Under the pieces are notes generated by a model, which searched no databases, was not told where the DNA came from, and saw only the letters and a program-made list of their open reading frames with translations. A stretch of DNA of 64,000 nucleotides from Patescibacteria group bacterium (GTDB taxonomy: Bacteria > Patescibacteriota > Minisyncoccia > Phycocordibacterales > PALSA-1337): positions 8,865 through 72,864 of the forward strand of contig JBBTTD010000002.1 in NCBI GenBank assembly GCA_038064415.1. The letters are read 5' to 3'. Of this stretch, positions 7,629 to 57,809 are shown in pieces (within the stretch, counting starts at the first letter, position 1; the number at the start of each line of letters is the position of its first letter). Made by a program: the position numbers and the translations under genes.

Positions 7629-7877
7629 ATGGTAAATGAAATCAAGCCAAATGGAATTTATACAACCAGCGAGACGCAAAGCTACTTGCGTATAAGTGAA
7701 AGCACGATCAAGAGAATGCTGAAGAAAGGTCTGATTCGTGCTAACAAGGTTGGTGGACAGTATAGAATTCTTGGAAAAGAGATCTTACGTGTCCTATCAC
7801 CTGATTTGGAAAAGGAGGCAATTAAATCATACTTGGATCTCAAGAAAAAAGTCGTAAAAAAGATAAATAGATGGTAA
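7629..7877 (+). CDS. Helix-turn-helix DNA-binding protein (excisionase/MerR-like HTH_17 type)
   Basis: 82 aa. Motif [37 protein letters not shown] is typical of excisionase-family HTH domains. It is the first gene of the glycan island. Confidence 0.6.
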
Positions 7878-8974
7878 AATCAAAAACTATGAAAAAGAAA
7901 ACGACAAGGAACGCCAAAAGAAAAAAAGCGCTTATTACAGGAATTACTGGTCAGGATGGATCATACCTTGCAGAACTTCTTATTGAAAAAGGATATGAAG
8001 TACACGGACTCATGAGACGATCGAGCTCATTTAACACTTCTCGTATTGATCATCTTTTTCAAGATCCACATACCAAAGGGAAACTATTCACTGGGAGTTT
8101 TGGCGACCTTTCCGACGCAAGCAACCTCTCGCGCCTTATTGAATCTCTAAAGCCAGACGAAATCTACAATCTTGGCGCACAGAGTCATGTGAGAGTAAGT
8201 TTTGATATCCCTGAATATACAGCTGATGTAGTTGGATTGGGAACACTTCGTCTCTTGGATGCAATTAGAGAAAGTGGGGTTAAGACAAAATTTTACCAAG
8301 CCTCGTCCTCTGAAATGTTTGGAAAAGTAACGGAAATTCCTCAAACTGAAAATACCCCTTTCCATCCTCGTTCACCATATGCAGTAGCAAAAGTATTCTC
8401 ATATTGGATCACCAGAAATTATCGTGAGTCATATAATCTTTTCGCGGTAAATGGGATTCTTTTTAATCACGAATCTCCTCGCCGAGGAAAGACATTCGTC
8501 ACTAAGAAAATTACCCGGGGATTAGCACGTATTAAGCTAGGACTTGATGAAAAATTATACCTTGGAAACCTTGATGCAAAACGCGATTGGGGACATGCAA
8601 AAGATTATGTATACGGCATGTGGTTAATGCTCCAACAAGACAAACCAGATGACTACATACTTGCGACTGGTGAAAATCATTCTGTACGTGAATTCGTTGA
8701 AGAAGTTGCAAAATACTTTGACATCGATCTGATGTGGAGAGGAAAAGGAGTAAAAGAAAAAGGAATTGACAAAAAAACTGGTAAAATAATCATTGAGATT
8801 GATCCTATATATTTTAGGCCAGCTGAAGTTGACCTGCTCATTGGTGATGCATCAAAAGCAAGAAAAAAGCTTGGATGGAAACCTAAAATTCGTTTTAAAG
8901 AATTAGTAAGATTGATGTGCGAACATGATCTGAAAGAAGAAAAATATGCAAAGCAAATTCTTGCAAATGAATAA
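7871..8974 (+). CDS. gmd: GDP-mannose 4,6-dehydratase
   Basis: Near-colinear match to Gmd: [77 protein letters not shown]. Confidence 0.95.
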
Positions 8975-9908
8975 CTATATGAATAAAGAATCAAAAATAT
9001 ATGTAGCTGGACATACTGGTCTCGTTGGAGGAGCAATTTTTAGATTACTTAAACAAAAAGGTTACAAAAATCTTATTGGCAAGACACACACCGAGCTCGA
9101 TCTTGAAAATGAATCACAAGTAAAAACATTTTTTGAAAAAGAAAAACCTGAGTATGTATTTTTATGCGCCGCAAAAGCAGGTGGAATAAAAGACAACAGC
9201 GAGAAACCTGCTGAATTTATTTTAAGAAACCTTAAAATACAGACCAATGTTATAGATACGGCATATAGAAACCAAGTAAAAAAACTTCTTTTTATGGGAA
9301 GCTCATGCATATATCCACGGATTACAGAACAGCCCATTAAAGAGGACTACTATATGACAGGAAAGCTTGAACCGACAAATGAAGCATATGCTGTCGCAAA
9401 GATTGCCGGCATATCAATGTGTCAATCATACAGAAAACAATATGGCTGTGATTTTATTTCTGTCATGCCAAACAACATTTATGGACCAGGTGATCATTTT
9501 GAAATAGAGCGTTCACATGTAATACCTGCTTTGATTCGTAGATTCCATGATGCAAAAAAAGAAAACAAGAAAGAGATCGTGCTTTGGGGTACGGGAGTCG
9601 CAATTCGAGAATTTCTCCATTGTGATGATTTGGCTAGTGCAAGCTTATTTCTAATGAAAAACTACAGAGATAAGGAAATTATTAATGTTGGTACAGGAGT
9701 CGGTATATCAATCAAAGATCTCGGAACAATGATACGGAAGATTGCTGGTTTTGAAGGCAAAATCGTATGGGATTCAACAAAACCTGATGGAATGCCGATA
9801 CGACTCCTTGATGCCTCAAAGATTCAATCGCTTGGTTGGAAAGCGAAAATTGATTTTGATAAAGGCCTAAAGGAAACATATGAATGGTTTATTGAACATG
9901 TTGTATAA
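8946..9908 (+). CDS. fcl: GDP-4-keto-6-deoxymannose 3,5-epimerase/4-reductase (Fcl / ColC-type)
   Basis: [61 protein letters not shown] are Fcl hallmarks. ColC (GDP-colitose synthase) is a close homolog and cannot be excluded. Confidence 0.9.
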
Positions 9909-9926
9909 AAAAATAAAATTAAACCA

Positions 9927-11120
9927 ATGAAAAAATCTACTGGATTTAGGGTGCCACTAGTCAAAAATGCTTTAATAAATAATAAGCAAGCACTGCAGGC
10001 GTTATCCACATTCATTTTGAAGACTGACAGATTAAGCATGGGCAACTATTGTCATGCTTTTGAGCTAGCATTTGCAAAAAAACAAAAACGAAAATATGCA
10101 ATACTTTTCAACAGTGGCGGTAGTGCAAATTTGGCGATGATTCAAACTCTAAAAAACTTGGGTAAGTTAAAAAATAAAGATAAGGTCGGTTTCTCTTCCT
10201 TGACTTGGTCTACGAATGTTATGCCTATAATCCAGTTGGGACTTGAAGCGATTCCAGTAGATTGCGATCCTACAACACTCAACAGTATGTCAAAAAATGC
10301 AATAAAAATATTAGAAAAGGAGAAGTGTTCAGCATTTTTTCTGACAAATGCACTAGGATTTGCTGGAGACATAGACATCATAGAAAAAGAGTGTAAAAAA
10401 AGAGGAATTATTGTGCTTGAAGATAACTGTGAAGCCTTGGGAACTGAACTTAATAAAGGAAAAACTGGAAATTTTGGTTTAGCTTCAAGTTTTTCTTTTT
10501 TCGTTGCCCATCATATGTCAACGATTGAGGGTGGTATGGTCTGTACAGACAACGATAATTTTGCAGAAATGCTCAAAATTGTGAGGGCTAACGGATGGGA
10601 TAGAAACATCAGTCCAGAAAGACAAATCTATTGGAGAAATAAATTTGGAATTGAATCTGATTTTCAAGCCAAATATACTTTCTATGATCTGGGTTACAAT
10701 CTTCGTCCAACTGAAATTACAGGATTCCTAGGCCTACATCAGTTGAAGTTTCTTGATAAAACAACAAAAATCCGTGAAAAGAATTTTAGACGAATTTACA
10801 AAGTTCTCAAAGAGAATGGTGACTTTCTCCCTCTTAACTGGAAACATATAAAGATAATCTCAGCATTTGCCATACCACTTATATGCAAAAATCCAAAGCT
10901 TAGAGAAAAATACATCAGGCGGTTTGAGAAGATGGGAGTAGAAGTTCGTCCAATGATTGCTGGAAATATGCAACGACAACCTTTTTATAAAAAATATTCT
11001 TCTAAAAATTATAACTTACCTGGTGCAGATATTATCCATTATAACGGATTTTATTGTGGTAACTGCCCAGATTACACGGAAGAAGAACTCAAAATAATAA
11101 TAGGCTGCATAAAAAAATGA
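9927..11120 (+). CDS. DegT/DnrJ/EryC1 family PLP enzyme with His replacing the Schiff-base Lys (ColD/E1-like sugar 3-dehydratase)
   Basis: Fold-type I aminotransferase family. At the position of the PLP lysine (FSFFGNKTITTGEGG in perosamine synthase) this protein has FSFFVAHHMSTIEGG, the His substitution characteristic of GDP-4-keto-6-deoxymannose 3-dehydratase ColD and CDP-hexulose 3-dehydrase E1. Confidence 0.65.
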   Translation: MKKSTGFRVPLVKNALINNKQALQALSTFILKTDRLSMGNYCHAFELAFAKKQKRKYAILFNSGGSANLAMIQTLKNLGKLKNKDKVGFSSLTWSTNVMPIIQLGLEAIPVDCDPTTLNSMSKNAIKILEKEKCSAFFLTNALGFAGDIDIIEKECKKRGIIVLEDNCEALGTELNKGKTGNFGLASSFSFFVAHHMSTIEGGMVCTDNDNFAEMLKIVRANGWDRNISPERQIYWRNKFGIESDFQAKYTFYDLGYNLRPTEITGFLGLHQLKFLDKTTKIREKNFRRIYKVLKENGDFLPLNWKHIKIISAFAIPLICKNPKLREKYIRRFEKMGVEVRPMIAGNMQRQPFYKKYSSKNYNLPGADIIHYNGFYCGNCPDYTEEELKIIIGCIKK

Positions 11121-11130
11121 AAGAAAAACT

Positions 11131-11955
11131 ATGAATACACTTACCACAATAATAAAACCTAAGAAAACATTTAGTTTGCGAGATTTTAGAGAACTTTGGA
11201 ATTACAGAGAACTTCTATATTTTTTTACATGGAGAGATCTAAAGGTTCGTTACAAACAAACGGTTATTGGAGCTGCTTGGGCAATTCTGCAACCATTTAT
11301 AACCATGGTAATTTTCACTCTATTTTTTGGTACGCTTGCCAAAATGCCATCCGACGGAATTCCATATCCTATCTTCGTTTACACAGGACTTCTTTTTTGG
11401 CAATTTTTTTCAAGTTCCCTTTCCGATACTAGTAATGTGCTTATCGCCAATCAATCAATCATAACTAAAGTCTACTTTCCTCGTTTAATTTTGCCGATAT
11501 CGGGTGTTATAACAAAATTTGTAGATTTCTTGATAGCATCTATTATACTAGCTGGACTAATGATATATTTTGGATTCATTCCACACATAAGTGGACTATT
11601 GATTATACCAATACTGCTTATAATAACTTTTATGGCTTCGGTTGGTACAGGATTATTCTTGGCATCAATTAATGTCAAATATCGTGATATTCGTTATGCT
11701 CTCCCATACTTTATACAAATGCTTCTATTCTTGACACCAGTCATATATCCCGCATCAATTGCAGGTAAATACTCTTGGATTCTCGCATTAAATCCGATGA
11801 CGGGAGTGATACAGTCCGCGCGCGCAGCTCTTTTGGGAACAACACCAATAAACTGGGTACTTCTGTCCATATCATTTTCAACTTGTCTTATTATCTTAAT
11901 CATTGGAATAATGTATTTCAAAAAAGTTGAGAGATATTTCGCAGATATTCTATAG
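11131..11955 (+). CDS. wzm: ABC-2 type polysaccharide export permease (Wzm)
   Basis: 274 aa with 6 TM helices. ABC-2 family pattern and placement immediately upstream of the ATPase. Confidence 0.8.
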   Translation: MNTLTTIIKPKKTFSLRDFRELWNYRELLYFFTWRDLKVRYKQTVIGAAWAILQPFITMVIFTLFFGTLAKMPSDGIPYPIFVYTGLLFWQFFSSSLSDTSNVLIANQSIITKVYFPRLILPISGVITKFVDFLIASIILAGLMIYFGFIPHISGLLIIPILLIITFMASVGTGLFLASINVKYRDIRYALPYFIQMLLFLTPVIYPASIAGKYSWILALNPMTGVIQSARAALLGTTPINWVLLSISFSTCLIILIIGIMYFKKVERYFADIL

Positions 11956-13231
11956 AAACATGAACATTGAACCAATAATAAAAGCAAGAAATATAGGAAA
12001 AAAATACAAAATTAGGCATAATCTTGGTGGTTATGTCGCCCTTAGAGATGTCATTATGACGATAATTAAGAGCCCATTTAGATTTGCTAAAGATAAAATA
12101 AAATCCATAACTGGCATAAAAACAAAAGAAGAATTCTGGGCTTTGAAAGATGTCAGTTTTGACATTTTTCCTGGAGAAGTTGTTGGGATAATTGGACGAA
12201 ATGGAGCAGGAAAATCTACACTTCTTAAAATACTAACTGGCATTACTCCACCTACGACTGGCGAAATACACCTACATGGTCGAGTTGCTTCGCTACTTGA
12301 GGTCGGTACAGGATTTCATCCAGAATTGACTGGCCGAGAAAATATTTTTCTAAACGGGGCAATACTGGGAATGACCAGAAAAGAAATTGCGAAAAATTTT
12401 GATTCCATTGTAGAATTTGCTGAAATAAGCAAATTTCTTGATACACCAGTAAAATACTATTCCAGTGGTATGTATGTTCGTCTAGCATTTTCAGTTTCTG
12501 CGCATATGGAGCCAGATATTCTACTTGTAGATGAGGTACTGGCTGTTGGTGATGCTGAATTTCAGAAAAAATGTTTAGGAAAAATGGAGGAGGTAACACG
12601 TAAACAAGGTAGAACCATTCTATTTGTCAGTCATAATATGGCGGCAATTCAAAGTCTATGTAAAAAATGTATACTGATTGAAAAAGGTAGTATAAAAAAT
12701 ATTGGAAATACAGAGGATATTGTCAATCAGTACTTGAGTGGTAATGCAAAAGAAGGAACGGAGAAGATCTGGCCAGAGGAAAAACGTCCTGGAAATGATA
12801 TAGCTTCTCTTATTTCAACTAGATTAATAAACCGAGAAGGAAAAACTATTTCATATGCTTATTCTGATAAAGAAATTGGTATAGAGATAGTCCACGAGGT
12901 CAAGAAACCTGGTTACATGCCAATACCAAATGTACATGTCTTTACCAACAAGGCAGAATATGCTTTTATCAGTCATGCTGACTATAATGAGAATCTTGAT
13001 AAAGTCGGAATATACAAATCAACTGCTTGGATACCAGCCAATATTTTAAATAATAGTACATACATAATTGGCATTGCGGTTTCTACAATGATTCCTCTAC
13101 AAGTCCATCTCTATGAGCGTGAGGCAATAATCTTTCAGGTTATAGAAGATATAGATAATGCAAAAAAATATGACTACAATCAAAAGATACCTGGAGTCGT
13201 AAGACCAAAATTGGAATGGAGTTATGAATAA
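11927..13231 (+). CDS. wzt: ABC polysaccharide export ATP-binding protein (Wzt) with extended C-terminal domain
   Basis: Walker A GRNGAGKST, signature YSSGMYVRLAFS, Walker B ILLVDEVLAVGD. An extra ~180-aa C-terminal domain resembles the glycan-terminus-binding domain of O-antigen Wzt proteins. Confidence 0.85.
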   Translation: MRDISQIFYRNMNIEPIIKARNIGKKYKIRHNLGGYVALRDVIMTIIKSPFRFAKDKIKSITGIKTKEEFWALKDVSFDIFPGEVVGIIGRNGAGKSTLLKILTGITPPTTGEIHLHGRVASLLEVGTGFHPELTGRENIFLNGAILGMTRKEIAKNFDSIVEFAEISKFLDTPVKYYSSGMYVRLAFSVSAHMEPDILLVDEVLAVGDAEFQKKCLGKMEEVTRKQGRTILFVSHNMAAIQSLCKKCILIEKGSIKNIGNTEDIVNQYLSGNAKEGTEKIWPEEKRPGNDIASLISTRLINREGKTISYAYSDKEIGIEIVHEVKKPGYMPIPNVHVFTNKAEYAFISHADYNENLDKVGIYKSTAWIPANILNNSTYIIGIAVSTMIPLQVHLYEREAIIFQVIEDIDNAKKYDYNQKIPGVVRPKLEWSYE

Positions 13232-13236
13232 CAGTA

Positions 13237-13923
13237 ATGATAATAAATTATTTTGGAAAAATTAAAACTTTGGGCAAACTACTAAAAAGAAAATTTTCAG
13301 TTACACCCGAGGATGAGAAAATAGATTATGATGGCGAAACAATATACGCTGGTCACTTTCAGATCAAATATAGAGGAGTAAATATGATTCGTTGCCCTTT
13401 TGATTATGTGATATATCAAATGATGATCAATGAAGTCAAACCAGACTTAGTAATTGAAATCGGTACAAATCATGGCGGAACCACACTCTATATAGCTGAC
13501 CTCATGGACAAAATTGATCATGGAATGGTGCACTCAATTGATATAGTGAAGAAATCAGATAGACTGGTTCAAAGTAGCCCAAGGATTAAACTTTTTAGTA
13601 ATGGTTGGGATAAATATGATTTAAATGAGACAAAAGGTTTTAATAAGATTATAGTCATAGAAGATGCTTCACATATGTATGAAGACTGTATTGGTTCACT
13701 TAATAAATTTTCTAAACTTGTCAGCATTGGATCATACTATATTGTAGAAGATGGAATTATCAGTAGCCATGGAAGAGATGAAGGGTATAATGGAGGTCCG
13801 CTTAGAGCAATCAGAGAATTTCTGAAATCAAATAGCAACTTTAATGTAGATAGAAAATATTGTGATATGTTTGGCAAAAATGCAACATTCAATGTAAATG
13901 GGTACTTAAAAAGGATAAAATAA
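13237..13923 (+). CDS. CmcI/cephalosporin-hydroxylase-family SAM-dependent O-methyltransferase (glycan chain-terminal methyltransferase candidate)
   Basis: 228 aa. Motifs PFDYVIYQMMINEVKPDLVIEIGTNHGGTTLYIA and IVIEDASH are typical of the CmcI-like methyltransferases found next to Wzm/Wzt. Confidence 0.6.
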   Translation: MIINYFGKIKTLGKLLKRKFSVTPEDEKIDYDGETIYAGHFQIKYRGVNMIRCPFDYVIYQMMINEVKPDLVIEIGTNHGGTTLYIADLMDKIDHGMVHSIDIVKKSDRLVQSSPRIKLFSNGWDKYDLNETKGFNKIIVIEDASHMYEDCIGSLNKFSKLVSIGSYYIVEDGIISSHGRDEGYNGGPLRAIREFLKSNSNFNVDRKYCDMFGKNATFNVNGYLKRIK

Positions 13924-13926
13924 TTT

Positions 13927-14829
13927 ATGGCGAAAATATTTATAGGAATGCCAGTCTATAATGGCGAGCGCTTTATAAAAAGTGCTGTTGACTCAATAGT
14001 AAATCAAACTTTTAATGACTGGAAACTATTTATCTCTGATGATGGTTCTAGTGATAACACTAGTATTATTTGTAAAGAATATTCTAATTCTGATCCAAGA
14101 ATTGAATACTACAGACAACCAAAAAATACAGGACTGTTTGAAAACTTTAAATATGTGCTTGATAAGGCGGATTCGAAATATTTTATATGGTGCGCGCAGG
14201 ATGATATTAGAGAAAAAGAATATTTTGAAATATGTATACATAAATTAGAAGAGAACAAAGACTTGAGTTTTGCTACCACCACAATGGCCGCAATTGATTC
14301 GTTTGATAGAATATTGATTGTTGAGGACCAGCTTACAAAGTTATCTGGCAAACCAAGTATGATAAATGTCGCTAAATATGTTTTACAGCCAGAAATATTA
14401 GGAAAATGTAATCTGATGTATGGACTTTTCAGAACTGAAGTTGTAAAAATGGTCTGGAAAGCATATCCACAAAGAAGTGTTTGGGGTCAGGATTATATGT
14501 TTTCATTAGCTTTAATAAGTCGCTTTGAAATATTTGTCGACAGAAAAATTCTTTTCAAAAAACGTTTAGGAGGATTTTCTAGTCCTAAGGCACTTTTAAA
14601 TGACACCGACAATATGGTAAAAAAAATTGAATACAAAAATCCAAAAAATCAAATGTTCCCATTAGGTGAATTCAAGGATTATTTTAAAGGACATATGGAA
14701 GCATTAAAAGGAACACCTTATCGTAGCTTAACTGCTATACTTCTTTTGATTCGTCTGCCAAGATCATTTGTTATATATTTAAAAGAGAGAAATATAAAGA
14801 AATATTTAAATCATATCATTAACAAATAA
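13927..14829 (+). CDS. Glycosyltransferase family 2
   Basis: IGMPVYNGERFIKSAVDSIVNQTF...ISDDGSSDNT is a GT-A DXD-type N-terminus. Confidence 0.8.
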   Translation: MAKIFIGMPVYNGERFIKSAVDSIVNQTFNDWKLFISDDGSSDNTSIICKEYSNSDPRIEYYRQPKNTGLFENFKYVLDKADSKYFIWCAQDDIREKEYFEICIHKLEENKDLSFATTTMAAIDSFDRILIVEDQLTKLSGKPSMINVAKYVLQPEILGKCNLMYGLFRTEVVKMVWKAYPQRSVWGQDYMFSLALISRFEIFVDRKILFKKRLGGFSSPKALLNDTDNMVKKIEYKNPKNQMFPLGEFKDYFKGHMEALKGTPYRSLTAILLLIRLPRSFVIYLKERNIKKYLNHIINK

Positions 14830-14830
14830 G

Positions 14831-15724
14831 ATGACGGTAATCATCAAAACAATCGGTGGCTTAGGAAACCAATTATTTCAATACGCATTTGCGCGTGGTA
14901 TATCTTCACATCTTGAGACAAGCTTCCTTTTAGATATTGACACATCGGTTGTTTATAAAAATGAAAGAGTTCATGAATTTTCACTTCAACATTTTAATGT
15001 GACCATACCTATGGCTAAATGGTATCATATGTACGGCTTTGTGTGGCTACGAAGACAGAAACGGCTCTTTAATTTTATTTATCACAAGTTACGTCTAAAA
15101 AAAATGTTTTCTTCTTTTTACTTTATTGAGAGATTATTTTGCTTTGATGAAAATGTACTTTCAAAGGGTGATGGTTCATATTTTGAAGGATTCTGGAACA
15201 CAGAAAAATATTTCAAAAATATAGAAAAAGAGATTAGAAAGGAAATCATCATCAATAAACCACTCTCTGAATACGGGCAAAAAATAAATGATGAGATTAT
15301 GAAGAAAAATTCTATATCACTACATGTAAGACGCACAGATTATGTCACTCACAAGATTTCAAATGAGTATCATGGGACATGTTCTCAAGAATATTATAAA
15401 AATGCTATTAAATATGTAGCAGAAAGAGTACCTTCACCACATTTTTTCATCTTCTCTGATGATTATGGTTGGGTAGTTGAAAATTTCAAATTCCTTCAAT
15501 ATCCTTACACTTGCATAAAAAATGGACCAGAAAAAAATTATGAGGATTTAACACTTATGTCCAAATGTAAACACCATATAATAGCAAATAGTACATTCAG
15601 TTGGTGGGGTGCATGGCTCAATCCCAAAAAAGACAAGATTGTTATTGGGCCAAAACAGTGGTTCAAAAATGCTCCGAAAGCAAATACGGTAGATCTTTTC
15701 CCAGATGGTTGGATAAAATTATAA
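14831..15724 (+). CDS. Glycosyltransferase family 11 (alpha-1,2-fucosyl/colitosyl-transferase type)
   Basis: GT11 motifs GGLGNQLFQYAFA, HVRRTDY, FIFSDD, ANSTFSWWGAWLN. Confidence 0.85.
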   Translation: MTVIIKTIGGLGNQLFQYAFARGISSHLETSFLLDIDTSVVYKNERVHEFSLQHFNVTIPMAKWYHMYGFVWLRRQKRLFNFIYHKLRLKKMFSSFYFIERLFCFDENVLSKGDGSYFEGFWNTEKYFKNIEKEIRKEIIINKPLSEYGQKINDEIMKKNSISLHVRRTDYVTHKISNEYHGTCSQEYYKNAIKYVAERVPSPHFFIFSDDYGWVVENFKFLQYPYTCIKNGPEKNYEDLTLMSKCKHHIIANSTFSWWGAWLNPKKDKIVIGPKQWFKNAPKANTVDLFPDGWIKL

Positions 15725-15731
15725 TGCTGCA

Positions 15732-18621: not shown

Positions 18622-18625
18622 TTTT

Positions 18626-19465: not shown

Positions 19466-19536
19466 ACTTATGGAGTATAGTTGTGCTGGATTTGTACACT
19501 GAAATAAACAATATAACCTAGAAAGGAAACCATCAA

Positions 19537-21348: not shown

Positions 21349-21378
21349 AAGACATTTGTTTGTTTTATTTAATCACAC

Positions 21379-21413
21379 GACCTCACCGCATTATGTGTGT
21401 GGGGTCTTTTTTT
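21379..21413 (+). terminator. Rho-independent terminator after the radical SAM gene
   Basis: Stem GACCTCAC (21379-21386) pairs with GTGGGGTC (21399-21406) with one G-U, a 12-nt loop, then TTTTTTT at 21407-21413. It lies between convergent genes. Confidence 0.45.
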
Positions 21414-24271: not shown

Positions 24272-24360
24272 ATATTAAAAAATACTATAACAGATTGCTT
24301 ATTTATGCAACACGAACATTTCAGCTGGTGTCCGAACCACTGAACCTACTTGATTGTCTC

Positions 24361-25599: not shown

Positions 25600-25601
25600 T
25601 C

Positions 25602-26435: not shown

Positions 26436-26441
26436 GATTTT

Positions 26442-30880: not shown

Positions 30881-30884
30881 CTCT

Positions 30885-31640: not shown

Positions 31641-31651
31641 TATAGAATATA

Positions 31652-35734: not shown

Positions 35735-35788
35735 GGTTAGGCAATTGGGGTATAGTGTAGCAAATTTGATGATATAATTGAAGCCAAA

Positions 35789-36835: not shown

Positions 36836-36837
36836 AA

Positions 36838-38004
36838 ATGAAAATATTAGTCATTGGAACAATAGATAATAAAGGCGGTGCGGCCCAGATATCATGGGAG
36901 CTTCGGAATAGACTAAAAACTGATGGGCATACAGTAAATACTTTTGTTAGATACAAATATTCAAACGAACCTGATGTATTTGTTATACCGAGAAAACGCT
37001 ATCAGGATTGGTTGGTAAAAATTTTCGCCAATGACCTTATTTTTGCGGGATCAAGTTTTATTTTAAACTCAAAAGAATACAAAGGGGCAGACATTATCCA
37101 TTGTCACAACCTTCACAGTAATTTTTTTAACCTCAAAGACCTTATTAGAATGTCTAAGGAAAAACCAATTATTTGGACACTTCACGATATATGGGCAATT
37201 ACTGGATTTGCCAGTGATAGCACAACACTGAAAAAACCAAACAAAAAAAGATTTCTTTTGTATTTCTGGGACAATACAAGACATCTTTTGAAAGCAAAGA
37301 AAAAGATTTACGACAAGATAAAGATACACATTGTCGCAGTCTCTGAGTGGTTAAAAAATGAATTGGAAAACAGTATATTAAAGAACCAGAATATTTCAAG
37401 AATATATAATGGCGTAGACGTAGAAATATTCAAGCCAAGTGATAAAAATTTCGTAAGAAGAGAATTAGGACTACCTATTAATAAAAAGATAATTGCTTTA
37501 GGTATAAAGGGTTGGTTAGATTCTAGATCAATAATTGAAAGTTATAAAGACCAAAATGATATTTTCTTTTTAGCGATAGGCCATTCAAACATTGATACTA
37601 GCAATAAAAATTATGTATCTATAGGCTATATAGAAAAAAGGGAGCTTTTATCTAAATATCTTTCAGCTAGCGACATTTTCCTTTACCCAACTCAAGGTGA
37701 TACCTTTGGACTTATTTGCGCTCAATCGTCAGCGTGCGGTACACCAGTGGTAACTTATGATACTGATGCGTTACCTGAAATAATCTCTCATACTCAAACT
37801 GGTTATGTCGCTAAACGCGGAGATCTTGAGGATATTAGAGTCGGTATAGAGTATATACTAAATTTACCCTTAAATGACTATACAGCAATGTGTAGTAAGG
37901 TACGCCAAGTCGCAATAGAAAAATTTTCAAAAGAAAAGATGTATGCACAATATCTCAAGCTTTACAAAAAAATATTAGCTTCTAGAAAAATCAATATTTT
38001 GTAA
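36838..38004 (+). CDS. Glycosyltransferase family 4 (GT-B)
   Basis: 388 aa. N-terminus KILVIGTIDNKGGAAQ and C-terminus FLYPTQGDTFGLICAQSSACGTPVVTYD. Confidence 0.75.
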   Translation: MKILVIGTIDNKGGAAQISWELRNRLKTDGHTVNTFVRYKYSNEPDVFVIPRKRYQDWLVKIFANDLIFAGSSFILNSKEYKGADIIHCHNLHSNFFNLKDLIRMSKEKPIIWTLHDIWAITGFASDSTTLKKPNKKRFLLYFWDNTRHLLKAKKKIYDKIKIHIVAVSEWLKNELENSILKNQNISRIYNGVDVEIFKPSDKNFVRRELGLPINKKIIALGIKGWLDSRSIIESYKDQNDIFFLAIGHSNIDTSNKNYVSIGYIEKRELLSKYLSASDIFLYPTQGDTFGLICAQSSACGTPVVTYDTDALPEIISHTQTGYVAKRGDLEDIRVGIEYILNLPLNDYTAMCSKVRQVAIEKFSKEKMYAQYLKLYKKILASRKINIL

Positions 38005-38632
38005 TTTTGACCACAAATGACAAACTAAAAAGATTTGGCATGATTTTTGCAAAAAATTTCATCAAATATGAAATGACCGGTAATGATTCTAGAAAAGTGT
38101 TTGATCTAAAATCCGTGAATTTCACTTGAGAATGTAAACACATCAATTTGAGAACATTATAATTGAACCAATATACATGTCCTTTTTTTGGTCGATTATT
38201 TTCGGGAACTTTTCCAAATAATACTTGCAACCTTGATGGTAGAGAACTAAAGTTTGGTATACCAACAATAAGACTTTGCTTTGATACACGAACCGCTTCT
38301 TTAAACAGAGTTTCAGGATCATACAAATGCTCTAGTAAATCAAGCATAACAACAACATCAAAAGTATCATCTGAAAAAGGTAATTTATTACTAAAATCAA
38401 AAACGGAAGCGTTAATCCCTCTTGCACGAGCTTTGGATACGCCCTCTTCTGAAATATCCAGACCTTCACCTATTATTCCCTTGTCTTTAAGCATTGAAAG
38501 AAGCAATCCGTCACCACAACCGAGATCTAAAACTTTCCCAAAACCAATCATCTCAAGTGTGGCTCTGTGTCTAAATTCAAGTTTTTGATCATTATCAGAC
38601 CACCTTTTATTTTCAAAATTTTTTACACTCAT
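37991..38632 (-). CDS. Class I SAM-dependent methyltransferase
   Basis: Motif I VLDLGCGDGLL and motif II VVMLDLLEHLYDP. Confidence 0.7.
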   Translation of the reverse strand: MSVKNFENKRWSDNDQKLEFRHRATLEMIGFGKVLDLGCGDGLLLSMLKDKGIIGEGLDISEEGVSKARARGINASVFDFSNKLPFSDDTFDVVVMLDLLEHLYDPETLFKEAVRVSKQSLIVGIPNFSSLPSRLQVLFGKVPENNRPKKGHVYWFNYNVLKLMCLHSQVKFTDFRSNTFLESLPVISYLMKFFAKIMPNLFSLSFVVKITKY

Positions 38633-38634
38633 AT

Positions 38635-39051: not shown

Positions 39052-40140
39052 TTAATTAATATTTTTGGACAAAGAATCCGCTAAATGACTGAGGCTGTGT
39101 TTTTTGACAAATCGCCCCAAAGAAACCTGCGCTGTTTTTCTATTTTCTTCACTGTAGTCCAGGAGTTTCTTGATTTTTTCTGTAAGCTCATCAATATCAC
39201 ATTGTTTGAATATAAAATCATCACTAATCTGTCCGACAAGATTATCATTTGACGCGACAATAAGACAGCCGCAAGCAATTGATTCAAATATGGTCTTATC
39301 ATACATCCCACTTGCTGATAGATTTACAAATATCTCATGCGCCGAGTATATTTCAGGAGTTTTATAGTTTGGCACTCCATTGAAAAATTTCACATCTAGA
39401 GCATATTTTAGTACATGCTCTTTTATTGATTGATAATATTCCCTATCTGACTCTATAGGATCTCCATACATTGACGCAGTATATTCTATACCCTGATCAG
39501 TAATTTTTTTAAGGGCCTCAACGAGAAAATCTGGGCGTTTGGATGGAGAAAAACGAGCCAGAAAAAGTATTGATCTTTTCCCTCTAGCTATTTCAGTTTT
39601 TGGCTTAAAATTTTCCAGATCCACTCCTACTGGCATCAGCACAGTTTTCTTATATCTAGCGGTATATGAAAACCTTGAAGTACAGAATATTTTATTACAA
39701 AAAAATGATGCAAAGTCCGTTAAAAATGACCCCGCGTAGTGATTTCTCCACATGGTCACTTTTTTACCAATTAACCTCCAGATTCCGCCACCCATGATCA
39801 AATACTCCTGATTCATATGCACAAACACAACATCATAATTTTTCCGCTCCTGCCAAATATATTTATAAAATCTCAAAATATATTGAATCCTAGACTTTCT
39901 ATTTTCCTTACCGAGCGACAATACTTTTACATTTGAAGGTAATTCATAGGCACCTTTTTCCAAGCAAATAACCACAATAGACTCAAAATGCTTGGCAAAT
40001 TCAATTATCCATCTATGAAAAAAGCCAAGGATTGGGTCATTTTTATCAACTTTCTGGGTAACAATTAATAAACGCATGAAGTTAGTATAAGTCACAAAGC
40101 GCAAGTTGCAAGCGTACCCGAAATCACAATAACTGTTCAA
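39052..40140 (-). CDS. Glycosyltransferase family 4 (GT-B)
   Basis: 362 aa with a GT4 C-terminal domain (ILFLARFSPSKRPDFLVEAL...FESIACGCLIVASN). Confidence 0.75.
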   Translation of the reverse strand: MNSYCDFGYACNLRFVTYTNFMRLLIVTQKVDKNDPILGFFHRWIIEFAKHFESIVVICLEKGAYELPSNVKVLSLGKENRKSRIQYILRFYKYIWQERKNYDVVFVHMNQEYLIMGGGIWRLIGKKVTMWRNHYAGSFLTDFASFFCNKIFCTSRFSYTARYKKTVLMPVGVDLENFKPKTEIARGKRSILFLARFSPSKRPDFLVEALKKITDQGIEYTASMYGDPIESDREYYQSIKEHVLKYALDVKFFNGVPNYKTPEIYSAHEIFVNLSASGMYDKTIFESIACGCLIVASNDNLVGQISDDFIFKQCDIDELTEKIKKLLDYSEENRKTAQVSLGRFVKKHSLSHLADSLSKNIN

Positions 40141-41209
40141 TTACTTTCTTAGCAACTTCTTCCGGGCTATATCCCACAACTTTAGCCCCAACCTCCATTG
40201 CTACTCCAACATCCGTTGAAACAATTTCACAACCAGCTGCCTTGGCCTCTACAAGTGTCATACCATAACCTTCATATAGTGAGGTGTTTAGAAACAGATC
40301 CGCGGTCTTATAATAAGAAACTAGGACATTTTTATCCGCCCACTGTTCAAAAATAACATTCTCATTTAAGCTAAGTCTTGAGACTAGAGATTTGAGATTA
40401 GAAATTTGAGATCCATTACCAACAATAATTAACCCAGTTTTGGGAATCTCTTCAACCACTTTTTTCCAAGATTGAATTGCCAATGCAATGTTTTTTTCTT
40501 TTTCAATCCTTGAGGCCATTAAGACTATCTGACTAAACTGTGGGTATTTTTTGTGGAGATCAGCACCATCAATAATTGGCGCAGACTTTATCCAATCAGT
40601 ATTAACTGCAATTGGTCGTACTTCAATTTTTGAATCTTCTATCTTCAAAACATCCTTTAGATAATTCTTAATTCTTTGAGAAACTACACGAATTCTATCA
40701 GCTTTAAAAATATAGTTTGTGGCCATAAATTTCCTAATCTTATTACTAAAAGAATAAGTGAAGTATGGACTTCCGATATCAGTGTGAATTTGAATTTCAA
40801 GAGGTAAATCAAACTTATTTTTCAAAGAAACTCCGGCCATGGCAGTGAGGAAAGGATCCTGACAAGTAATATTTGTTATCCTCCTTCCTTGAACAATAAA
40901 TCGCCCTAATCGAATGGCGTCAAATGGATACAGAAACTTTGATCGTGATTGTGTTGAATATGCCCAGCAATTGGAAGACACGACAACTTCTTTACTCCTA
41001 AAATCCCTCTTTGAAAAAGATGGTGCCAAAGGTGAAGAATCTTTATCAAAAACAATTATGTGAACTTCTGCCCAATCTTTTGCATACTCAACCTGACGCG
41101 CCCGAACAGTACTTTCTTTTTCAAAGATCTTCCTATCAGTTGAAATCATTAATAATTTTCTTGATTGCACAATGATAATATAGTTACAACTTTTTCCACA
41201 CTTCCACAA
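40124..41209 (-). CDS. Glycosyltransferase family 4 (GT-B)
   Basis: 361 aa. VLMASRIEKEKNIALAI...SLYEGYGMTLVEAKAAGCEIVSTDVG. Confidence 0.75.
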   Translation of the reverse strand: MWKCGKSCNYIIIVQSRKLLMISTDRKIFEKESTVRARQVEYAKDWAEVHIIVFDKDSSPLAPSFSKRDFRSKEVVVSSNCWAYSTQSRSKFLYPFDAIRLGRFIVQGRRITNITCQDPFLTAMAGVSLKNKFDLPLEIQIHTDIGSPYFTYSFSNKIRKFMATNYIFKADRIRVVSQRIKNYLKDVLKIEDSKIEVRPIAVNTDWIKSAPIIDGADLHKKYPQFSQIVLMASRIEKEKNIALAIQSWKKVVEEIPKTGLIIVGNGSQISNLKSLVSRLSLNENVIFEQWADKNVLVSYYKTADLFLNTSLYEGYGMTLVEAKAAGCEIVSTDVGVAMEVGAKVVGYSPEEVAKKVIEQLL

Positions 41210-42203
41210 TCTCCCCCGCTATCTCCCTCCACGAATGCTTAAACTCTATCTTGGATACCTTTTCCGCTTGCAACGCTCTATTTTTCGGATCAGCCATCCA
41301 AACTATCTTTTCTATAATGTCCTTCTTATTTAGTGGATCAATGATAACGCCTGCATTGTTAATTCGATGAGCTATGCCAGTCTCTTTTGTAACAATAAAT
41401 GGCACGCCGACTCTTATAGAATCAAATATCATATTGGGGCTTATATCGCCGATTGAAGCCAATATCACGCAATATGACCTGCGCATCTTTTCTAGAAAAC
41501 TATCGTAAACTGCCTTACCTGTATCTAACTTAATGTCAGGAAAACCACATCTTTTTACTTCCTTTCTTGCTTCTTCAAAAGCCACTTTTAAAAAATCAGT
41601 ATTCTTCCACTTCAAAGATCTCGTCGCGGCGATAAAATTTCTATTTTCGGGTTTAATCTGAATCAATCTGTCTTCGCAATAATTTTCAATCACGCAAGTT
41701 TTTTCTTTTTTAAGTTCATAAGTATCAGTAAATATTTCGCGTTGCCATTCTGTGCTAAATATTACTTTTGAAGCACCACGCAAAGCGTTGCCTCCAAACA
41801 CAAAAACTGTTCTCTCTTTTTTGGTCAATTTATTGATACTTGTCCTATAAAAATTTTTAAACGGCACCATGTCTCCAGTCCGTTCAATGTAAGTTTCCCA
41901 GAGAAAGTCACCTCCAGTGCGAATCATGTATTTTTTATGCATCATTCTGCAAGCCCACATCGTCGGGACAGCCGCGCTCCAAGTGTCTAAAACCAAAACT
42001 AAATCCGCATTCCAGCCCTTTCTAATAATCTTTGTAAAATACAGAACATGCCTCAAAAACGCTGGAAATGCTCTTTCCCAGCGGTATGCGGCGACTTTTA
42101 CCTCATGACCCTGTGATTTCCAGGTTTCATACAGATTTCTGGCATATTGGGCCGGTCCCCCTATATCAGGTGGGTATATACCTGAAGCGATTAAAATCTT
42201 CAT
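41184..42203 (-). CDS. Glycosyltransferase, GT-B fold (GT4-like)
   Basis: 339 aa. N-terminus KILIASGIYPPDIGGPAQYARNL is typical of GT4. Confidence 0.6.
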   Translation of the reverse strand: MKILIASGIYPPDIGGPAQYARNLYETWKSQGHEVKVAAYRWERAFPAFLRHVLYFTKIIRKGWNADLVLVLDTWSAAVPTMWACRMMHKKYMIRTGGDFLWETYIERTGDMVPFKNFYRTSINKLTKKERTVFVFGGNALRGASKVIFSTEWQREIFTDTYELKKEKTCVIENYCEDRLIQIKPENRNFIAATRSLKWKNTDFLKVAFEEARKEVKRCGFPDIKLDTGKAVYDSFLEKMRRSYCVILASIGDISPNMIFDSIRVGVPFIVTKETGIAHRINNAGVIIDPLNKKDIIEKIVWMADPKNRALQAEKVSKIEFKHSWREIAGEIVEVWKKL

Positions 42204-42245
42204 ATATTAAGTCTACCATTATTTTTACTTCTATAAAATAAAAAA

Positions 42246-43364
42246 TTAAAGAACTTCTCTCATGTACGGCTCTATCTTCACCGTTCCTTTAACATTCTTA
42301 AAAGCATTATCACGATCTTTCTGTGTTTTGAAAATATATAGACCATAGCCACCAAAGCCCGCTCCGACATATTTTTTGCCTATTGATTTATTTATCGTCG
42401 GCAATTTTTCCATACCCTCTTTAATTTGCGCTTTGTAACTCAAGTTTACGGCTTGGGCAAGTTTAAGTATATTTTTCTTGTATGCCGCGTCTCTAGCAAT
42501 TTTTCCAGCTTTTTCAATCAAATTATAATCCCTCTTATTATCAAGATGGTCAGTAGATAGATGCCTCTTACCCGTCCAATAAATAAGCATCTTTCCGAGT
42601 AGCCAATCAGAATTAAAGTGAGCGTCAAGTATGGGTCTGCTACCTGATTTCCAGACGCAAAATCCTGTATGAAACATAATGGCGGGATCTTGCCATCCAA
42701 CACCCATATCTAGCTCTGACTTCACTCCGCTTTTTATCTGAAGTAACGCATACGCCGCGGACCCGCCAAGACCAGCGCCTTTTTCATAGGGCCATTCTCC
42801 TAGAGAAACAAGTGGGGAAATCGCGCAGTTAACAATATAAGCGCCAGGTCGAGCCAAACTAGGGACATCGAGCCAACCTCCACCAAAATCCACACGAAGT
42901 GGAACTTTCTGCGCGTCTTTAATTGAAGCAAGGACTGAAGTCGTGGATACGCGTTTCACAATATTTCTTTTAGGTAAAACCACAAGCGTCATGCCATATC
43001 TATCACAAAATTCTTTTTTCAATTTAACATTTTTATCATCATCAGTGACAGCAAGAATATCTGGATGCAATTCTTTTATGTGACCCTCAAAATCAAAGAC
43101 TGGGTGAAGGTCTGAACTTGTAACGACACGATCAATACATCTTATGGAGCTTAGGATAATTTGTTTATTGTCTTGCGGAATTGAAGGCGGGCGTTTCTTC
43201 GCAAGCAATAACACTTCATCACTCGCAAAACAAACAGTAAGGTGGTCACCGAGAGCTTTGGCATCTTCAAAAAATTGCACATGTCCGGCATGTAAAATAT
43301 CATAACAGCCAGAGACAAAGACCTTCTTGCCGCTCTTTTGTCTTGTTTTCTTACTTTTTCTCAT
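42246..43364 (-). CDS. Bifunctional protein: N-terminal HIGH-family nucleotidyltransferase (cytidylyltransferase/RfaE-domain-II-like) plus C-terminal GHMP sugar kinase
   Basis: N-terminal ~140 aa contain KVFVSGCYDILHAGHVQFF (the HxGH nucleotidyltransferase motif). The C-terminal ~230 aa carry the GHMP motif GAGLGGSAAYA. Confidence 0.65.
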   Translation of the reverse strand: MRKSKKTRQKSGKKVFVSGCYDILHAGHVQFFEDAKALGDHLTVCFASDEVLLLAKKRPPSIPQDNKQIILSSIRCIDRVVTSSDLHPVFDFEGHIKELHPDILAVTDDDKNVKLKKEFCDRYGMTLVVLPKRNIVKRVSTTSVLASIKDAQKVPLRVDFGGGWLDVPSLARPGAYIVNCAISPLVSLGEWPYEKGAGLGGSAAYALLQIKSGVKSELDMGVGWQDPAIMFHTGFCVWKSGSRPILDAHFNSDWLLGKMLIYWTGKRHLSTDHLDNKRDYNLIEKAGKIARDAAYKKNILKLAQAVNLSYKAQIKEGMEKLPTINKSIGKKYVGAGFGGYGLYIFKTQKDRDNAFKNVKGTVKIEPYMREVL

Positions 43365-43394
43365 TTTCCTAATTTAACACTTTTTTCTCACTTG

Positions 43395-44597
43395 TCAAAA
43401 GTGAGTCCCCTCAAACACCCCCCTCATCTCCTCAACCACTCTTTCCCACCCATATTTCTCTTTTACCATCTTCCTGGCGTTTTCAACTATATAATTCCTA
43501 GATTCCTTGTCTTTAATCAACTTTTCAACTTTTCTCGCGATACTTTTTGGATTATTAATTTCACAAAACAATCCAGTCTGTCCGTCAACCAAAAAATCAG
43601 GAATACCACCAATGGGCGTGGCAATCACTGGAATGCCAGCGGCCATGGCTTCTAAAAATGAATTGCCCAAGCCTTCTGATAAAGAAGGGCGAACGAATAT
43701 ATCGGAAATATGTAAATATCTAGGCATTTCCGCGTGCGAAACAAAACCAAGAAATTTAACTCGCTCGGTCAACTTGAGCATTGAACATTGATCTTTGAGA
43801 ATTTTCTCTTGGTATCCTTGACCTAGAATGATAAACTTAACATTGGTCGGTAAATATTGAAGTGCTGAAATAATGTCACCAACCGCATTTTTTGTCACCA
43901 ATCTAGAAGTGGTAATAAGAAAAATATCTCCTTCTTTTTTGACAAGTCTATCTTTCAAATTATCGCTATCACTATTAGAAATTTTTTTGCTAAATAATTC
44001 AATATCAACTCCATTTGGCACGACCACAATTGGACATACTGCTCCCATTTTCTTTGACCAATCCGCGAGAAAATTTGAAATAGCTTGAATATAGTCCGCG
44101 CAGGCAAATATTTTTCTAAACAGAAAATTAAACATGCCGTCGCGGATTTCAAAATTGTCTCCCTCTTGAATTGTTAAGACCACTGGAATTTTTGGATTTT
44201 TTTTCTTGAATAGAAACGCCGCAAAACCTGCGTAACTTGCCATAATTGGCCAAACTAGATCATAATGATTTTTCTTATGTAATTTTACAGCTTTGAGATA
44301 TGCAAAAAATGGAAAAAGTAATTTAGAAAGTGGAAAGATTCTTGAACTTTTTGTATTGCTTCCAAGCCAAGGCAAACCTACTCTATATACATTAACATTC
44401 CCAATCCTTTCAAATTCGGGAGCATGTTTGCGTAAAGTAATCATATCAAACTCAATTTCTCGCGGAGAAATCCTATCAGTAATTTCCTTGACCGCAACTT
44501 CAGCCCCGCCGATAAAACGGGGGTAATAAACTAGAGAAAAAATAAGGATTCGGCGCATGGTTCTATTCAAATAGGTTAGCGTGATTGCCGATATCAA
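43395..44597 (-). CDS. Glycosyltransferase family 4 (GT-B)
   Basis: 400 aa. RILIFSLVYYPRFIGGAEVAVKEI...PSLSEGLGNSFLEAMAAGIPVIATPIGG. Confidence 0.8.
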   Translation of the reverse strand: MISAITLTYLNRTMRRILIFSLVYYPRFIGGAEVAVKEITDRISPREIEFDMITLRKHAPEFERIGNVNVYRVGLPWLGSNTKSSRIFPLSKLLFPFFAYLKAVKLHKKNHYDLVWPIMASYAGFAAFLFKKKNPKIPVVLTIQEGDNFEIRDGMFNFLFRKIFACADYIQAISNFLADWSKKMGAVCPIVVVPNGVDIELFSKKISNSDSDNLKDRLVKKEGDIFLITTSRLVTKNAVGDIISALQYLPTNVKFIILGQGYQEKILKDQCSMLKLTERVKFLGFVSHAEMPRYLHISDIFVRPSLSEGLGNSFLEAMAAGIPVIATPIGGIPDFLVDGQTGLFCEINNPKSIARKVEKLIKDKESRNYIVENARKMVKEKYGWERVVEEMRGVFEGTHF

Positions 44598-57801: not shown

Positions 57802-57809
57802 CAGTGAGA

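Follow-up and report, generated by a model that had tools for sequence, protein, structure and literature searches.

The closest described parallels to the locus analyzed here are the S-layer glycosylation (slg) clusters of Geobacillus stearothermophilus NRS 2004/3a and Paenibacillus alvei, which encode the ATP-binding cassette (ABC) exporter Wzm/Wzt and an oligosaccharyl:protein transferase with a Wzy_C domain, and for which a terminal O-methyl cap has been proposed as the termination and export signal (PMC2943079). The locus in question lies at positions 7629-44597 of a 64-kb stretch of contig JBBTTD010000002.1 (64,000 nucleotides, hereafter the window) from a Patescibacteria (Paceibacterota) bacterium of Hainich groundwater. 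Two other kinds of system bear on it. In cap-dependent O-antigen export, known from E. coli O8/O9a and Aquifex aeolicus (7k2t/8dku), Wzm acts with a Wzt that joins a nucleotide-binding domain (NBD) to a C-terminal carbohydrate-binding domain (CBD), a methyltransferase gene adjoins wzt, and a 3-O-methyl-mannose/rhamnose cap is the ligand of the A. aeolicus CBD (PMC9445017). In three-component glycosylation systems (GtrA/GtrB/Gtr* of Shigella and Salmonella, ArnC/ArnT, CsbB-GtcA-YfhO and GT136), the genes for a GT2 synthase, a GT-C glycosyltransferase and a small candidate flippase occur together, and an invariant acidic residue is found in the loop after the first transmembrane (TM) helix (PMC11127046). 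We consider it likely that the block at 7629-44597 was inherited vertically and serves this bacterium, a member of the Candidate Phyla Radiation (CPR), as its main locus for cell-surface glycoconjugates, and that it combines an ABC-dependent polymer pathway with three-component glycosylation.

The resemblance to the slg clusters is broad. In a monoderm setting, each encodes Wzm/Wzt for exporting a glycan linked to polyprenyl, with a proposed methyl cap and a Wzy_C protein, here a candidate transferase (WsfB of slg has a C-terminal TPR). Each also has an AsnB homolog (WsfA in slg), a cytidylyltransferase of the TagD type and a branch that runs through polyprenyl-P-glucose; G+C is low in both, and the genes are closely packed and overlap. 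There are also distinct differences. The slg clusters carry dTDP-rhamnose genes, whereas the window has GDP-fucose/colitose genes and far more GT4 glycosyltransferases and methyltransferases; in slg the methyltransferase domain is part of a WsaE-like multidomain glycosyltransferase, whereas the window has a stand-alone enzyme of the CmcI type.

An open reading frame (ORF) listing and scans with Pfam and NCBIfam showed that the block, described as a single ~37-kb glycan island in an earlier note made from the sequence alone, is an uninterrupted 37-kb locus in which all genes are glycan-related. Its first position is the start of an 82-aa HTH_17 gene and its last that of the final GT4 gene, which is read from the minus strand; the genes form six or more transcription units on alternating strands (Table 1). 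Sixteen glycosyltransferases have Pfam support (four GT2, two GT11, eight GT4, one GT2-methyltransferase fusion and one PMT_2 GT-C), and a putative one of 328 aa brings the number to about 17; six S-adenosylmethionine (SAM)-dependent methyltransferase domains and a B12-radical-SAM enzyme make about seven methyltransferases. The earlier note had given the same two counts, and its parts list (GT2, GT4, GT11, GT-C, GtrA, AsnB and methyltransferases) is likewise supported by the family matches. Our search of the literature on CPR bacteria found no earlier account of the locus, only general remarks on glycosyltransferases, pili and phage-encoded nucleotide-sugar genes.

Related genomes contain the same genes in much the same order. 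A GT-C profile scan, using one genome per species, returned 54 loci whose informative titles are those of Patescibacteria groups, several of them with discordant automated labels such as 'Gammaproteobacteria' or 'archaeon'; related loci are cited below by L numbers. Homologs of GT-C, Wzt and the GT2-methyltransferase with informative names come from Patescibacteria, Paceibacterota, Parcubacteria, or Sung-, Taylor- or Campbellbacteria; the exception is one Wzt homolog from Ginsengibacter sp. By best-hit mapping, a recurring order was seen in dozens of Paceibacterota species: VirD4-like, GT4_h, GT4N_g, GT4_f, GtrA, GT4_e, (MetW-like methyltransferase), (two GT4, other strand), GT4_b, GT-C, GT2-methyltransferase, and beyond these, on the opposite strand, GT11_b, (FkbM), DUF268, GT2, GT4_a, AsnB. 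The order of GT4_h, g, f and e is kept in 22-42 loci, of the 43 loci with GT4_b most have it directly upstream of GT-C, GT11_b and DUF268 keep their relative position in 33 and 22 loci, and the MetW-like gene does so in 13 loci and in a collinear relative. That relative is represented by a 102.7-kb JGI contig with proteins about 70% identical, on which the entire locus is collinear from SecA-MurB-Wzy_C/TPR-HTH_17-Gmd to the GT4 block and only single genes have been exchanged. The GT2 and GT11 genes that follow CmcI in the window are kept after it in L063 and L050, and the AsnB-GT4-GT2 trio is conserved in L063, the JGI contig and several further loci of the L0xx series. Closer to home, an identical CmcI protein occurs on 18 metagenome contigs, the named ones being from Hainich groundwater 0.1-um filter fractions; the window matches four of these contigs at 100% identity and a second strain variant at 99.43%, without rearrangement. 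On this comparison of sequences the locus is core, with diversification at the level of cassettes.

One point of contact with described systems is the pair of export genes. The best PDB matches of Wzt are Wzt chains 8dku and 7k2t (E ~1e-67). In an alignment-based model its C-terminal domain is all-beta with pLDDT 82-95, and the top Foldseek matches are full-length A. aeolicus Wzt, over about 423 columns across NBD and CBD (E 8e-36, 34% identity), as against 6e-27 for NBD-only chains. The sequence alignment of Wzt to PDB entries ends at residue 326, so that the CBD aligns by fold and not reliably by sequence; a Wzt_C domain is recorded in most full-length Wzt homologs (60-84% identity). The extended C-terminal domain to which the earlier note drew attention is thus a genuine CBD. 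An upstream TTG (11927) was considered as the wzt start and rejected: an exact-protein look-up was empty, and gene calls and homologs give 11960. The CmcI-type gene begins 5 nt past the wzt stop codon, again as claimed, and follows wzt in at least five other loci (L036, L050, L063, L068, L070). That the Wzt CBD and CmcI fit the cap-dependent export model, which was also the earlier suggestion, is well supported by analogy and linkage, though short of proof. The candidate terminator is a small CmcI-family enzyme, whereas the WbdD-type terminator is a kinase/methyltransferase with a coiled-coil ruler, and cap-dependent O-antigen export serves cells with an outer membrane and lipopolysaccharide (LPS), both lacking here.

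The second system consists of GT-C, the GT2-methyltransferase fusion and GtrA. GT-C, at 472 aa, is minimal, without a large extracytoplasmic domain, and is nearly all membrane helices in its AlphaFold model (pLDDT 88.5, pTM 0.89). Foldseek matched it at probability 1.0 to STT3, PglB, ArnT, ALG3, Pmt4, DPY19 and Emb, with Pmt1 and Pmt2 also among the fold matches; STT3/PglB and ArnT outscored the PMTs, and neither sequence nor profile searches found a relative in the PDB. With the PMT/GT39 enzymes of Actinobacteria and eukaryotes, which are served by Ppm1, it shares the PMT_2 and PMT matches, the GT-C fold, the source annotation 'glycosyltransferase family 39' and a DPM1-like partner synthase. 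However, Pfam detected neither MIR nor PMT_4TMC domains (E<=1e-3), and this makes it a separate minimal GT-C family rather than a true PMT; the family has 825 cluster representatives at E<=1e-30. Directly after TM1 is the motif GDDGYYE; among 27 sequences its residues D48, G49 and E52 do not vary, whereas D47 does. The PMT-like enzyme proposed earlier therefore stands as to its PMT_2 match, its fold and an acidic motif in loop 1, but the motif is of the form DD...E and not the adjacent DE that is canonical for PMTs.

The GT2 half of the fusion matches DPMS (5mlz, 1.4e-17), ArnC (9hwj, 4.4e-14) and GtrB (5ekp, 1.2e-9) in the PDB, and its top NCBIfam models are AglJ, ArnC, PgfS and PpgS, each below the equivalog cutoff; by similarity only, it is a putative polyprenyl-phosphate sugar synthase of the DPM1/ArnC/GtrB type. 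The DxD and SAM motifs are invariant across 24 homologs of the fusion, a family with 55-80% identity whose taxonomically informative source names are all Patescibacteria. GtrA is a candidate flippase for the polyprenyl-P-sugar. The GT-C and fusion genes overlap by 32 nt, and of the 45 loci in which this could be assessed, 27 have the fusion directly downstream of GT-C. GtrA occurs in 30 of 49 GT-C loci (in 11 of them directly upstream of GT-C), and 21 have both GtrA and the fusion. Fold, motif and linkage thus support the view, put forward in the earlier note, that GtrA, GT2 and GT-C form a three-component extracytoplasmic glycosylation set, but two details of that proposal have changed: the GT2 is the N-terminal half of a 520-aa methyltransferase fusion, and GtrA is not adjacent to the overlapping pair but 4 kb away in the same locus. 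The fusion also sets the locus apart from the described three-component systems. In some relatives it is GT-C that is joined to the methyltransferase, and one protein consists of GT-C and GT2-methyltransferase together. We know of no characterised three-component system with a methyltransferase fusion, and the role of this unusual addition we can only infer. In what is apparently one genome pair (P0041 and P0242), GT-C is 49% identical and the partner fusion 80%, which suggests that GT-C, on the acceptor side, is diverging much faster than the donor synthase.

The genes for sugar supply give some indication of the composition of the glycan. The DegT-family protein downstream of Gmd and the Fcl-like enzyme has, in alignment, an active-site His-His in place of the catalytic Lys of aminotransferases. 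A reading of this gene as a perosamine-type aminotransferase was rejected on the basis of this motif and of the scores (1.7e-21 for perosamine synthase, 6.6e-55 for ColD). A ColD-like enzyme would imply a colitose (3,6-dideoxyhexose) pathway, and from Gmd, the Fcl-like enzyme, the ColD-type dehydratase and two GT11-family enzymes we predict L-fucose and/or L-colitose. A methylated, deoxyhexose-containing glycan, as earlier proposed, is therefore a reasonable expectation, made more specific by the 3-dehydratase, which points to colitose. The closest structure to the thiamine diphosphate (ThDP) enzyme is JanthE, which is described as YerE-like. YerE adds a two-carbon branch during yersiniose synthesis. 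With the adjacent short-chain dehydrogenase/reductase (SDR) and aminotransferase, this similarity suggests a branched or otherwise modified sugar; the three-gene cassette is kept in the collinear relative. The B12-radical-SAM enzyme may be a sugar C-methyltransferase. Its gene is missing from the otherwise collinear relative, and similar enzymes are found near wzm/wzt or GT-C in L064, L052, L053 and L057.

A further gene of probable relevance lies just outside the interval of the earlier note, which did not list it. It encodes a 755-aa Wzy_C membrane protein with C-terminal TPR, is linked divergently to the HTH17-...-wzm-wzt operon in three genomes, and is a candidate ligase or O-oligosaccharyl transferase of the exported glycan. 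The same architecture, Wzy_C with C-terminal TPR, has been described for WsfB and PglL (PMC2943079). As for the acceptor, cryogenic transmission electron microscopy of ultrasmall groundwater cells, likely CPR, has revealed a surface layer that is periodic but no sign of an outer membrane (PMC7906910), and a Parcubacterium genome lacks the lipid A genes lpxC and kdsA, although the CPR envelope is still called unclear by its authors (PMC5220378). Since outer membrane and lipid A are missing, the closest analogue is the Gram-positive S-layer glycosylation cluster and the acceptor is most likely a surface protein, of S-layer type or a pilin, by analogy with slg.

Gene content, folds, motifs, linkage and conservation come directly from the analysis; the identities of the sugars, the functions of the cap and of the fused methyltransferase, the acceptor and the following order of steps are what we infer. 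Gmd, the Fcl-like enzyme and the ColD-type dehydratase would supply GDP-L-fucose and/or GDP-L-colitose, and the YerE-like enzyme, SDR, aminotransferase, AsnB and B12-radical-SAM enzyme further modified sugars. Cytoplasmic GT2, GT4 and GT11 enzymes would assemble the chain on a polyprenyl carrier, the CmcI-type enzyme would methylate its non-reducing end, and the Wzt CBD would recognise the methyl cap for export by Wzm/Wzt. In parallel, the GT2 half of the fusion would charge polyprenyl phosphate with a hexose, which the fused methyltransferase possibly methylates; GtrA would flip the polyprenyl-P-sugar across the membrane, and GT-C would pass the sugar on, either to the exported glycan or to some other acceptor at the surface. 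The Wzy_C/TPR protein would then ligate the finished glycan to its acceptor. These are known pathway types, here in a lineage whose envelope is poorly understood. The surface of CPR episymbionts is their contact point with hosts and phages, and in this locus, conserved across the lineage, the machinery for the envelope glycan has a concrete candidate. The locus predicts a methyl-capped, ABC-exported glycan with fucose or colitose and a side residue delivered by a lipid-linked donor and a minimal GT-C; the conserved synthase-methyltransferase fusion offers another handle, alongside the glycan, for lectin or antibody probes, glycomics and heterologous biochemistry.

Several observations weigh against this scheme. 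The Wzt_C score of the window's own Wzt is 21 bits, under the gathering cutoff of 30.4. In CPR relatives with Wzm 73-76% identical, CBD similarity was 167-185 bits where CmcI follows wzt and 103, 0 and 0 elsewhere, which speaks for a coupling of the two, but this matched comparison involves only three loci against three. A metagenome scan with a Wzt profile was also used for the CmcI/CBD association, the matches listed being mostly distant Wzt homologs of 43-65% identity; over all loci among the matches listed CBD similarity differs with the presence of CmcI (p=2e-4), but NBD identity is likewise higher in the loci with CmcI (p=4e-4), and the association is thus confounded by relatedness. In the collinear relative an unrelated 328-aa protein replaces CmcI and GT2_a, yet its Wzt is 71% identical. 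Pfam found neither of the PglL-specific domains, PglL_A and Wzy_C_2, in the Wzy_C/TPR protein. All glycosyltransferase assignments are below the NCBIfam equivalog cutoffs, so that donors and acceptors of the GT4, GT11 and GT2 enzymes could not be named. Unlike the slg clusters, the window lacks both a structural gene for an S-layer and an initiating enzyme of the WbaP type; no initiating phosphoglycosyl transferase of the WecA/WbaP type was found in the block or the 64-kb window, nor a pilin gene or LCP ligase in the window. MraY (184.6 bits to TIGR00445) is the window's sole PF00953 protein. The initiating enzyme may be encoded elsewhere in the genome, and in L064 a Bac_transf gene is found close to the homologous operon. 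Finally, the GT4/GT-C block of L007 has no Wzm/Wzt within 10 kb, and the two halves may thus make separate products.

The alternative that survives best, somewhat unlikely in our judgment, is that the same machinery serves another acceptor, a secondary cell-wall polymer or a membrane-anchored lipoglycan resembling teichoic acid or lipomannan/lipoarabinomannan (LM/LAM), in which the GT4 block and GT-C would build on a lipid anchor and GT-C would extend or decorate the product outside with polyprenyl-P-sugar. The missing initiating transferase is in keeping with this, as GT4 enzymes can glycosylate lipids directly, and so is a weak NCBIfam likeness to diacylglycerol and phosphatidylglycerol glycosyltransferases, far below cutoff. 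TagH/TarH are the closest relatives of the Wzt NBD after Wzt itself, and the lack of S-layer and pilin genes in the window and the L007 block without nearby Wzm/Wzt point in the same direction. The assembly of mycobacterial phosphatidylinositol mannosides (PIM) and LM uses a similar logic of GT4, GT2 and GT-C. Against such a product, the linked candidate transferase is the Wzy_C/TPR protein and not an LCP ligase, and proteins of surface type with LTD domains border the homologous locus in three other genomes (L007 2621-4099, L008 325-1872, L063 1224-4337), two of them also having PKD. These are candidate surface or glycosylation-target proteins; none is found in the window. CPR bacteria have, moreover, been described as unable to make fatty acids de novo (PMC7906910).

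It is rather unlikely that the block holds two independent systems in a shared neighbourhood, a left half (7.6-25.6 kb) making an ABC-exported polymer and a right half (25.6-44.6 kb) making another glycoconjugate by way of the GT-C trio. The halves do occur apart, L007 having only the right half within +-10 kb and L063 the left half followed by other genes, and they differ in conservation (Wzt 60-84% identity, GT-C 42-53%). However, GtrA and GT-C lie immediately next to the Wzm-Wzt-CmcI-GT2-ColD block in L036 and L050, left-half genes (GT2_b, GT4_a, AsnB, GT11_a) are contiguous after right-half genes in, for example, L010, L016, L017, L048 and L051, and both halves are collinear in the 70% relative. 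A more novel reading, which we regard as doubtful, takes the conserved right half (the GT4 series, GtrA, minimal GT-C and GT2-methyltransferase) as a lineage-specific, Paceibacterota-wide machine for the major envelope glycoconjugate of these episymbionts without an outer membrane. In this variant of three-component glycosylation the fused methyltransferase would O-methylate the polyprenyl-P-sugar on the cytoplasmic face before flipping, so that a pre-methylated sugar is delivered outside, where SAM is unavailable.

The earlier note had read the block as an accessory island bounded by an HTH regulator on one side and by a VirD4-like gene and an orphan DinJ on the other. A horizontally acquired island delimited by genes of mobile-element type is now very unlikely, being already largely refuted. 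Its composition does deviate, at 32-37% G+C against 38-43% in the flanks, some 5 points lower, but low G+C is usual in glycan clusters (PMC2943079), and as evidence for an island it is weak. Individual genes are indeed swapped among relatives (CmcI with GT2_a, the radical-SAM enzyme, FkbM and the cytidylyltransferase fusion), and none of the 56 related loci has the RelB/DinJ gene that marks the right edge. This gene is, however, the only genome-specific element among the supposed borders. In 12 loci a VirD4-like homolog of 53-69% identity precedes GT4_h and points the same way. The gmd...wzm-wzt operon begins with HTH_17 in all contexts inspected, including a Falkowbacteria; homologs of 51-76% identity head it in L063, L064, L072, L082 and L097, and an HTH_17 gene does likewise on the JGI contig. 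No integrase or transposase was found in the window, nor a bordering tRNA, nor, in a repeat scan, direct repeats flanking the block; the sole tRNA of the window is at 63892, and an Rfam scan yielded nothing else. With the gene order shared by dozens of species-level genomes and by the collinear relative, SecA-MurB-Wzy_C flank included, these neighbours and the lack of mobility features leave the island reading unsupported; conservation and synteny in relatives were also what the earlier note had itself named as counting against it. In CPR genomes, caution is accordingly due before low-G+C glycan blocks with VirD4-like neighbours are annotated as islands.

Barely credible, finally, is a classical LPS O-antigen locus in which the Wzy_C protein, as a WaaL-type ligase, would join the Wzm/Wzt-exported polymer to lipid A-core in a diderm cell, for while Wzm, the Wzt CBD, the methyl cap, the Wzy_C protein and the Gtr-type trio match Gram-negative ABC-dependent O-antigen loci, the likely CPR cells and the Parcubacterium genome cited above lack an outer membrane and lipid A genes, respectively, the window has no Lpx, Kds or Lpt genes, and the TPR domain is like that of the protein-targeting WsfB and PglL.

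Table 1. Features of the glycan locus and its immediate neighbours (positions in the window; units numbered from left to right)
Feature	Position	Strand	Transcription unit	Basis or remark
Wzy_C (O-antigen-ligase family) membrane protein with C-terminal TPR, 755 aa	5218-7485	-		Pfam Wzy_C 86 bits, many TPR matches
HTH_17 DNA-binding protein, 82 aa	7629-7877	+	1	Pfam 43.8 bits; heads gmd...wzm-wzt operon
Gmd	7871-8974	+	1	NCBIfam TIGR01472, 578 bits (cutoff 415)
GDP-L-fucose synthase-like epimerase/reductase (Fcl/ColC type)	8979-9908	+	1	NCBIfam GDPFucSynFcl 455.6 bits, slightly below cutoff 500
Predicted ColD-type GDP-4-keto-6-deoxymannose 3-dehydratase (DegT family)	9927-11120	+	1	Top PDB match 2gms/3gr9 ColD, E 6.6e-55
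Wzm, ABC-2 permease	11131-11955	+	1	Pfam ABC2_membrane 58 bits; NCBIfam Wzm/RfbD
Wzt, 423 aa, NBD and C-terminal CBD (about residues 265-423)	11960-13231	+	1	Pfam ABC_tran 81 bits; model; Foldseek
CmcI/rhamnosyl-O-methyltransferase family enzyme, candidate chain-terminating cap enzyme	13237-13923	+	1	Pfam RMNT_CmcI 117 bits
GT2	13927-14829	+	1	Pfam
GT11 fucosyl/colitosyl-type transferase	14831-15724	+	1	Pfam
AsnB-type glutamine amidotransferase	15732-17480	+	1	Pfam/NCBIfam
GT4	17473-18621	+	1	Pfam/NCBIfam
GT2	18626-19465	+	1	Pfam/NCBIfam
B12-binding radical-SAM enzyme (PhpK/HpnJ-like)	19537-21348	+	1	Pfam, NCBIfam; every match far below equivalog cutoffs
SDR	21412-22437	-	2	Sugar-modification cassette 21412-25599
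YerE/JanthE-like ThDP carboligase (acetolactate-synthase-like)	22430-24271	-	2	Top PDB match 8rph JanthE, E 1.2e-92
Class I/II aminotransferase	24361-25599	-	2	Sugar-modification cassette
Class-I methyltransferase	25602-26435	+	3	Pfam
GT2	26442-27353	+	3	Pfam
DUF268-like methyltransferase	27338-28117	+	3	Pfam
GT2	28114-28968	+	3	Pfam
Putative GT-A, 328 aa	28968-29954	+	3	EDD motif only
GT11-like protein	29951-30880	+	3	Pfam, weak: 35.7 bits (cutoff 23.9)
FkbM-family methyltransferase	30885-31640	-	4	Pfam 68 bits; NCBIfam TIGR01444 77 bits (cutoff 37.7)
GT2-methyltransferase fusion, 520 aa	31652-33214	-	4	GT2 (1-220), class-I SAM methyltransferase (~330-440), hydrophobic C-terminal region (~460-510)
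Minimal GT-C glycosyltransferase (PMT_2 type), 472 aa	33183-34601	-	4	Pfam PMT_2 57 bits (cutoff 26.1) and PMT 30.3 bits (cutoff 22.7), over residues 78-233
GT4	34598-35839	-	4	Pfam
GT4	35789-36835	+	5	Pfam
GT4	36838-38004	+	5	Pfam
MetW-like class-I methyltransferase	37991-38632	-	6	Pfam MetW 92.5 bits
GtrA-family small membrane protein, 138 aa	38635-39051	-	6	Pfam GtrA_DPMS_TM 64 bits (cutoff 26); hydrophobic segments
GT4	39052-40140	-	6	Pfam
GT4	40124-41209	-	6	Pfam
GT4 N-domain protein	41184-42203	-	6	Pfam, N-terminal GT4 domain only
Cytidylyltransferase and GHMP-kinase-like fusion, 372 aa	42246-43364	-	6	Pfam/NCBIfam; C-terminal motif by eye
GT4	43395-44597	-	6	Pfam
Orphan RelB/DinJ antitoxin, no toxin partner	44598-44879	-
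VirD4/TraD-like DUF87 P-loop ATPase	44937-46949	-		Weak Pfam and NCBIfam matches

Some of the remaining genes deserve comment. The putative 328-aa GT-A had no Pfam, NCBIfam or PDB match. In L122 and L136 the gene that comes right after wzt encodes a homolog of 41% identity, and on the JGI 3300071325 contig a 328-aa protein without a Pfam match occupies the place of CmcI and GT2_a after wzt; to judge from these positions, the protein could be an alternative chain terminator. The N-terminal part of the cytidylyltransferase fusion is a cytidylyl/adenylyl-transferase with PDB matches to ethanolamine-phosphate and glycerol-3-phosphate cytidylyltransferases, and the GHMP-kinase-like motif seen by eye in its C-terminal part is GAGLGGSAA. 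It may be a sugar-salvage kinase/nucleotidyltransferase. No homolog was found in the related loci, and the gene is specific to the present genome.

The VirD4-like ATPase has no TM helices and a long C-terminal tail rich in Pro, Ala and Ser; coupling proteins typically have TM helices. Its junction with the first GT4 gene, where the window has RelB/DinJ, holds an LTD and PKD protein of surface type in L007 and L008, and the different genes found there mark it as a variable insertion spot. Beyond the VirD4-like gene, several genomes have a DUF4015 putative glycoside hydrolase and a TP_methylase; the window genes are at 46970-48259 (minus strand) and 49093-49806 (minus strand).

The locus is flanked on the left by SecA and MurB and on the right by MraY, Mur ligases and a DUF5671 protein. 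MraY (53236-54372, plus strand) aligns to its family model only over residues 159-372, its N-terminal 160 aa being divergent, and the gene between it and the Mur ligase (54452-55162, plus strand), with a weak ATE_C match (E 1.7e-4), may encode a Fem-type peptidyl transferase. A palindromic intergenic element of about 155-200 nt is present in two inverted copies, at 53041-53197 and 60554-60753, which bracket the 7.4-kb MraY-RadC segment; its arms of 81 and 75 nt are 76-83% complementary, and each copy is itself a hairpin. Further long intergenic hairpins were located at 4914-5069, 49857-49964 and 57807-57924, all of them outside the glycan locus.

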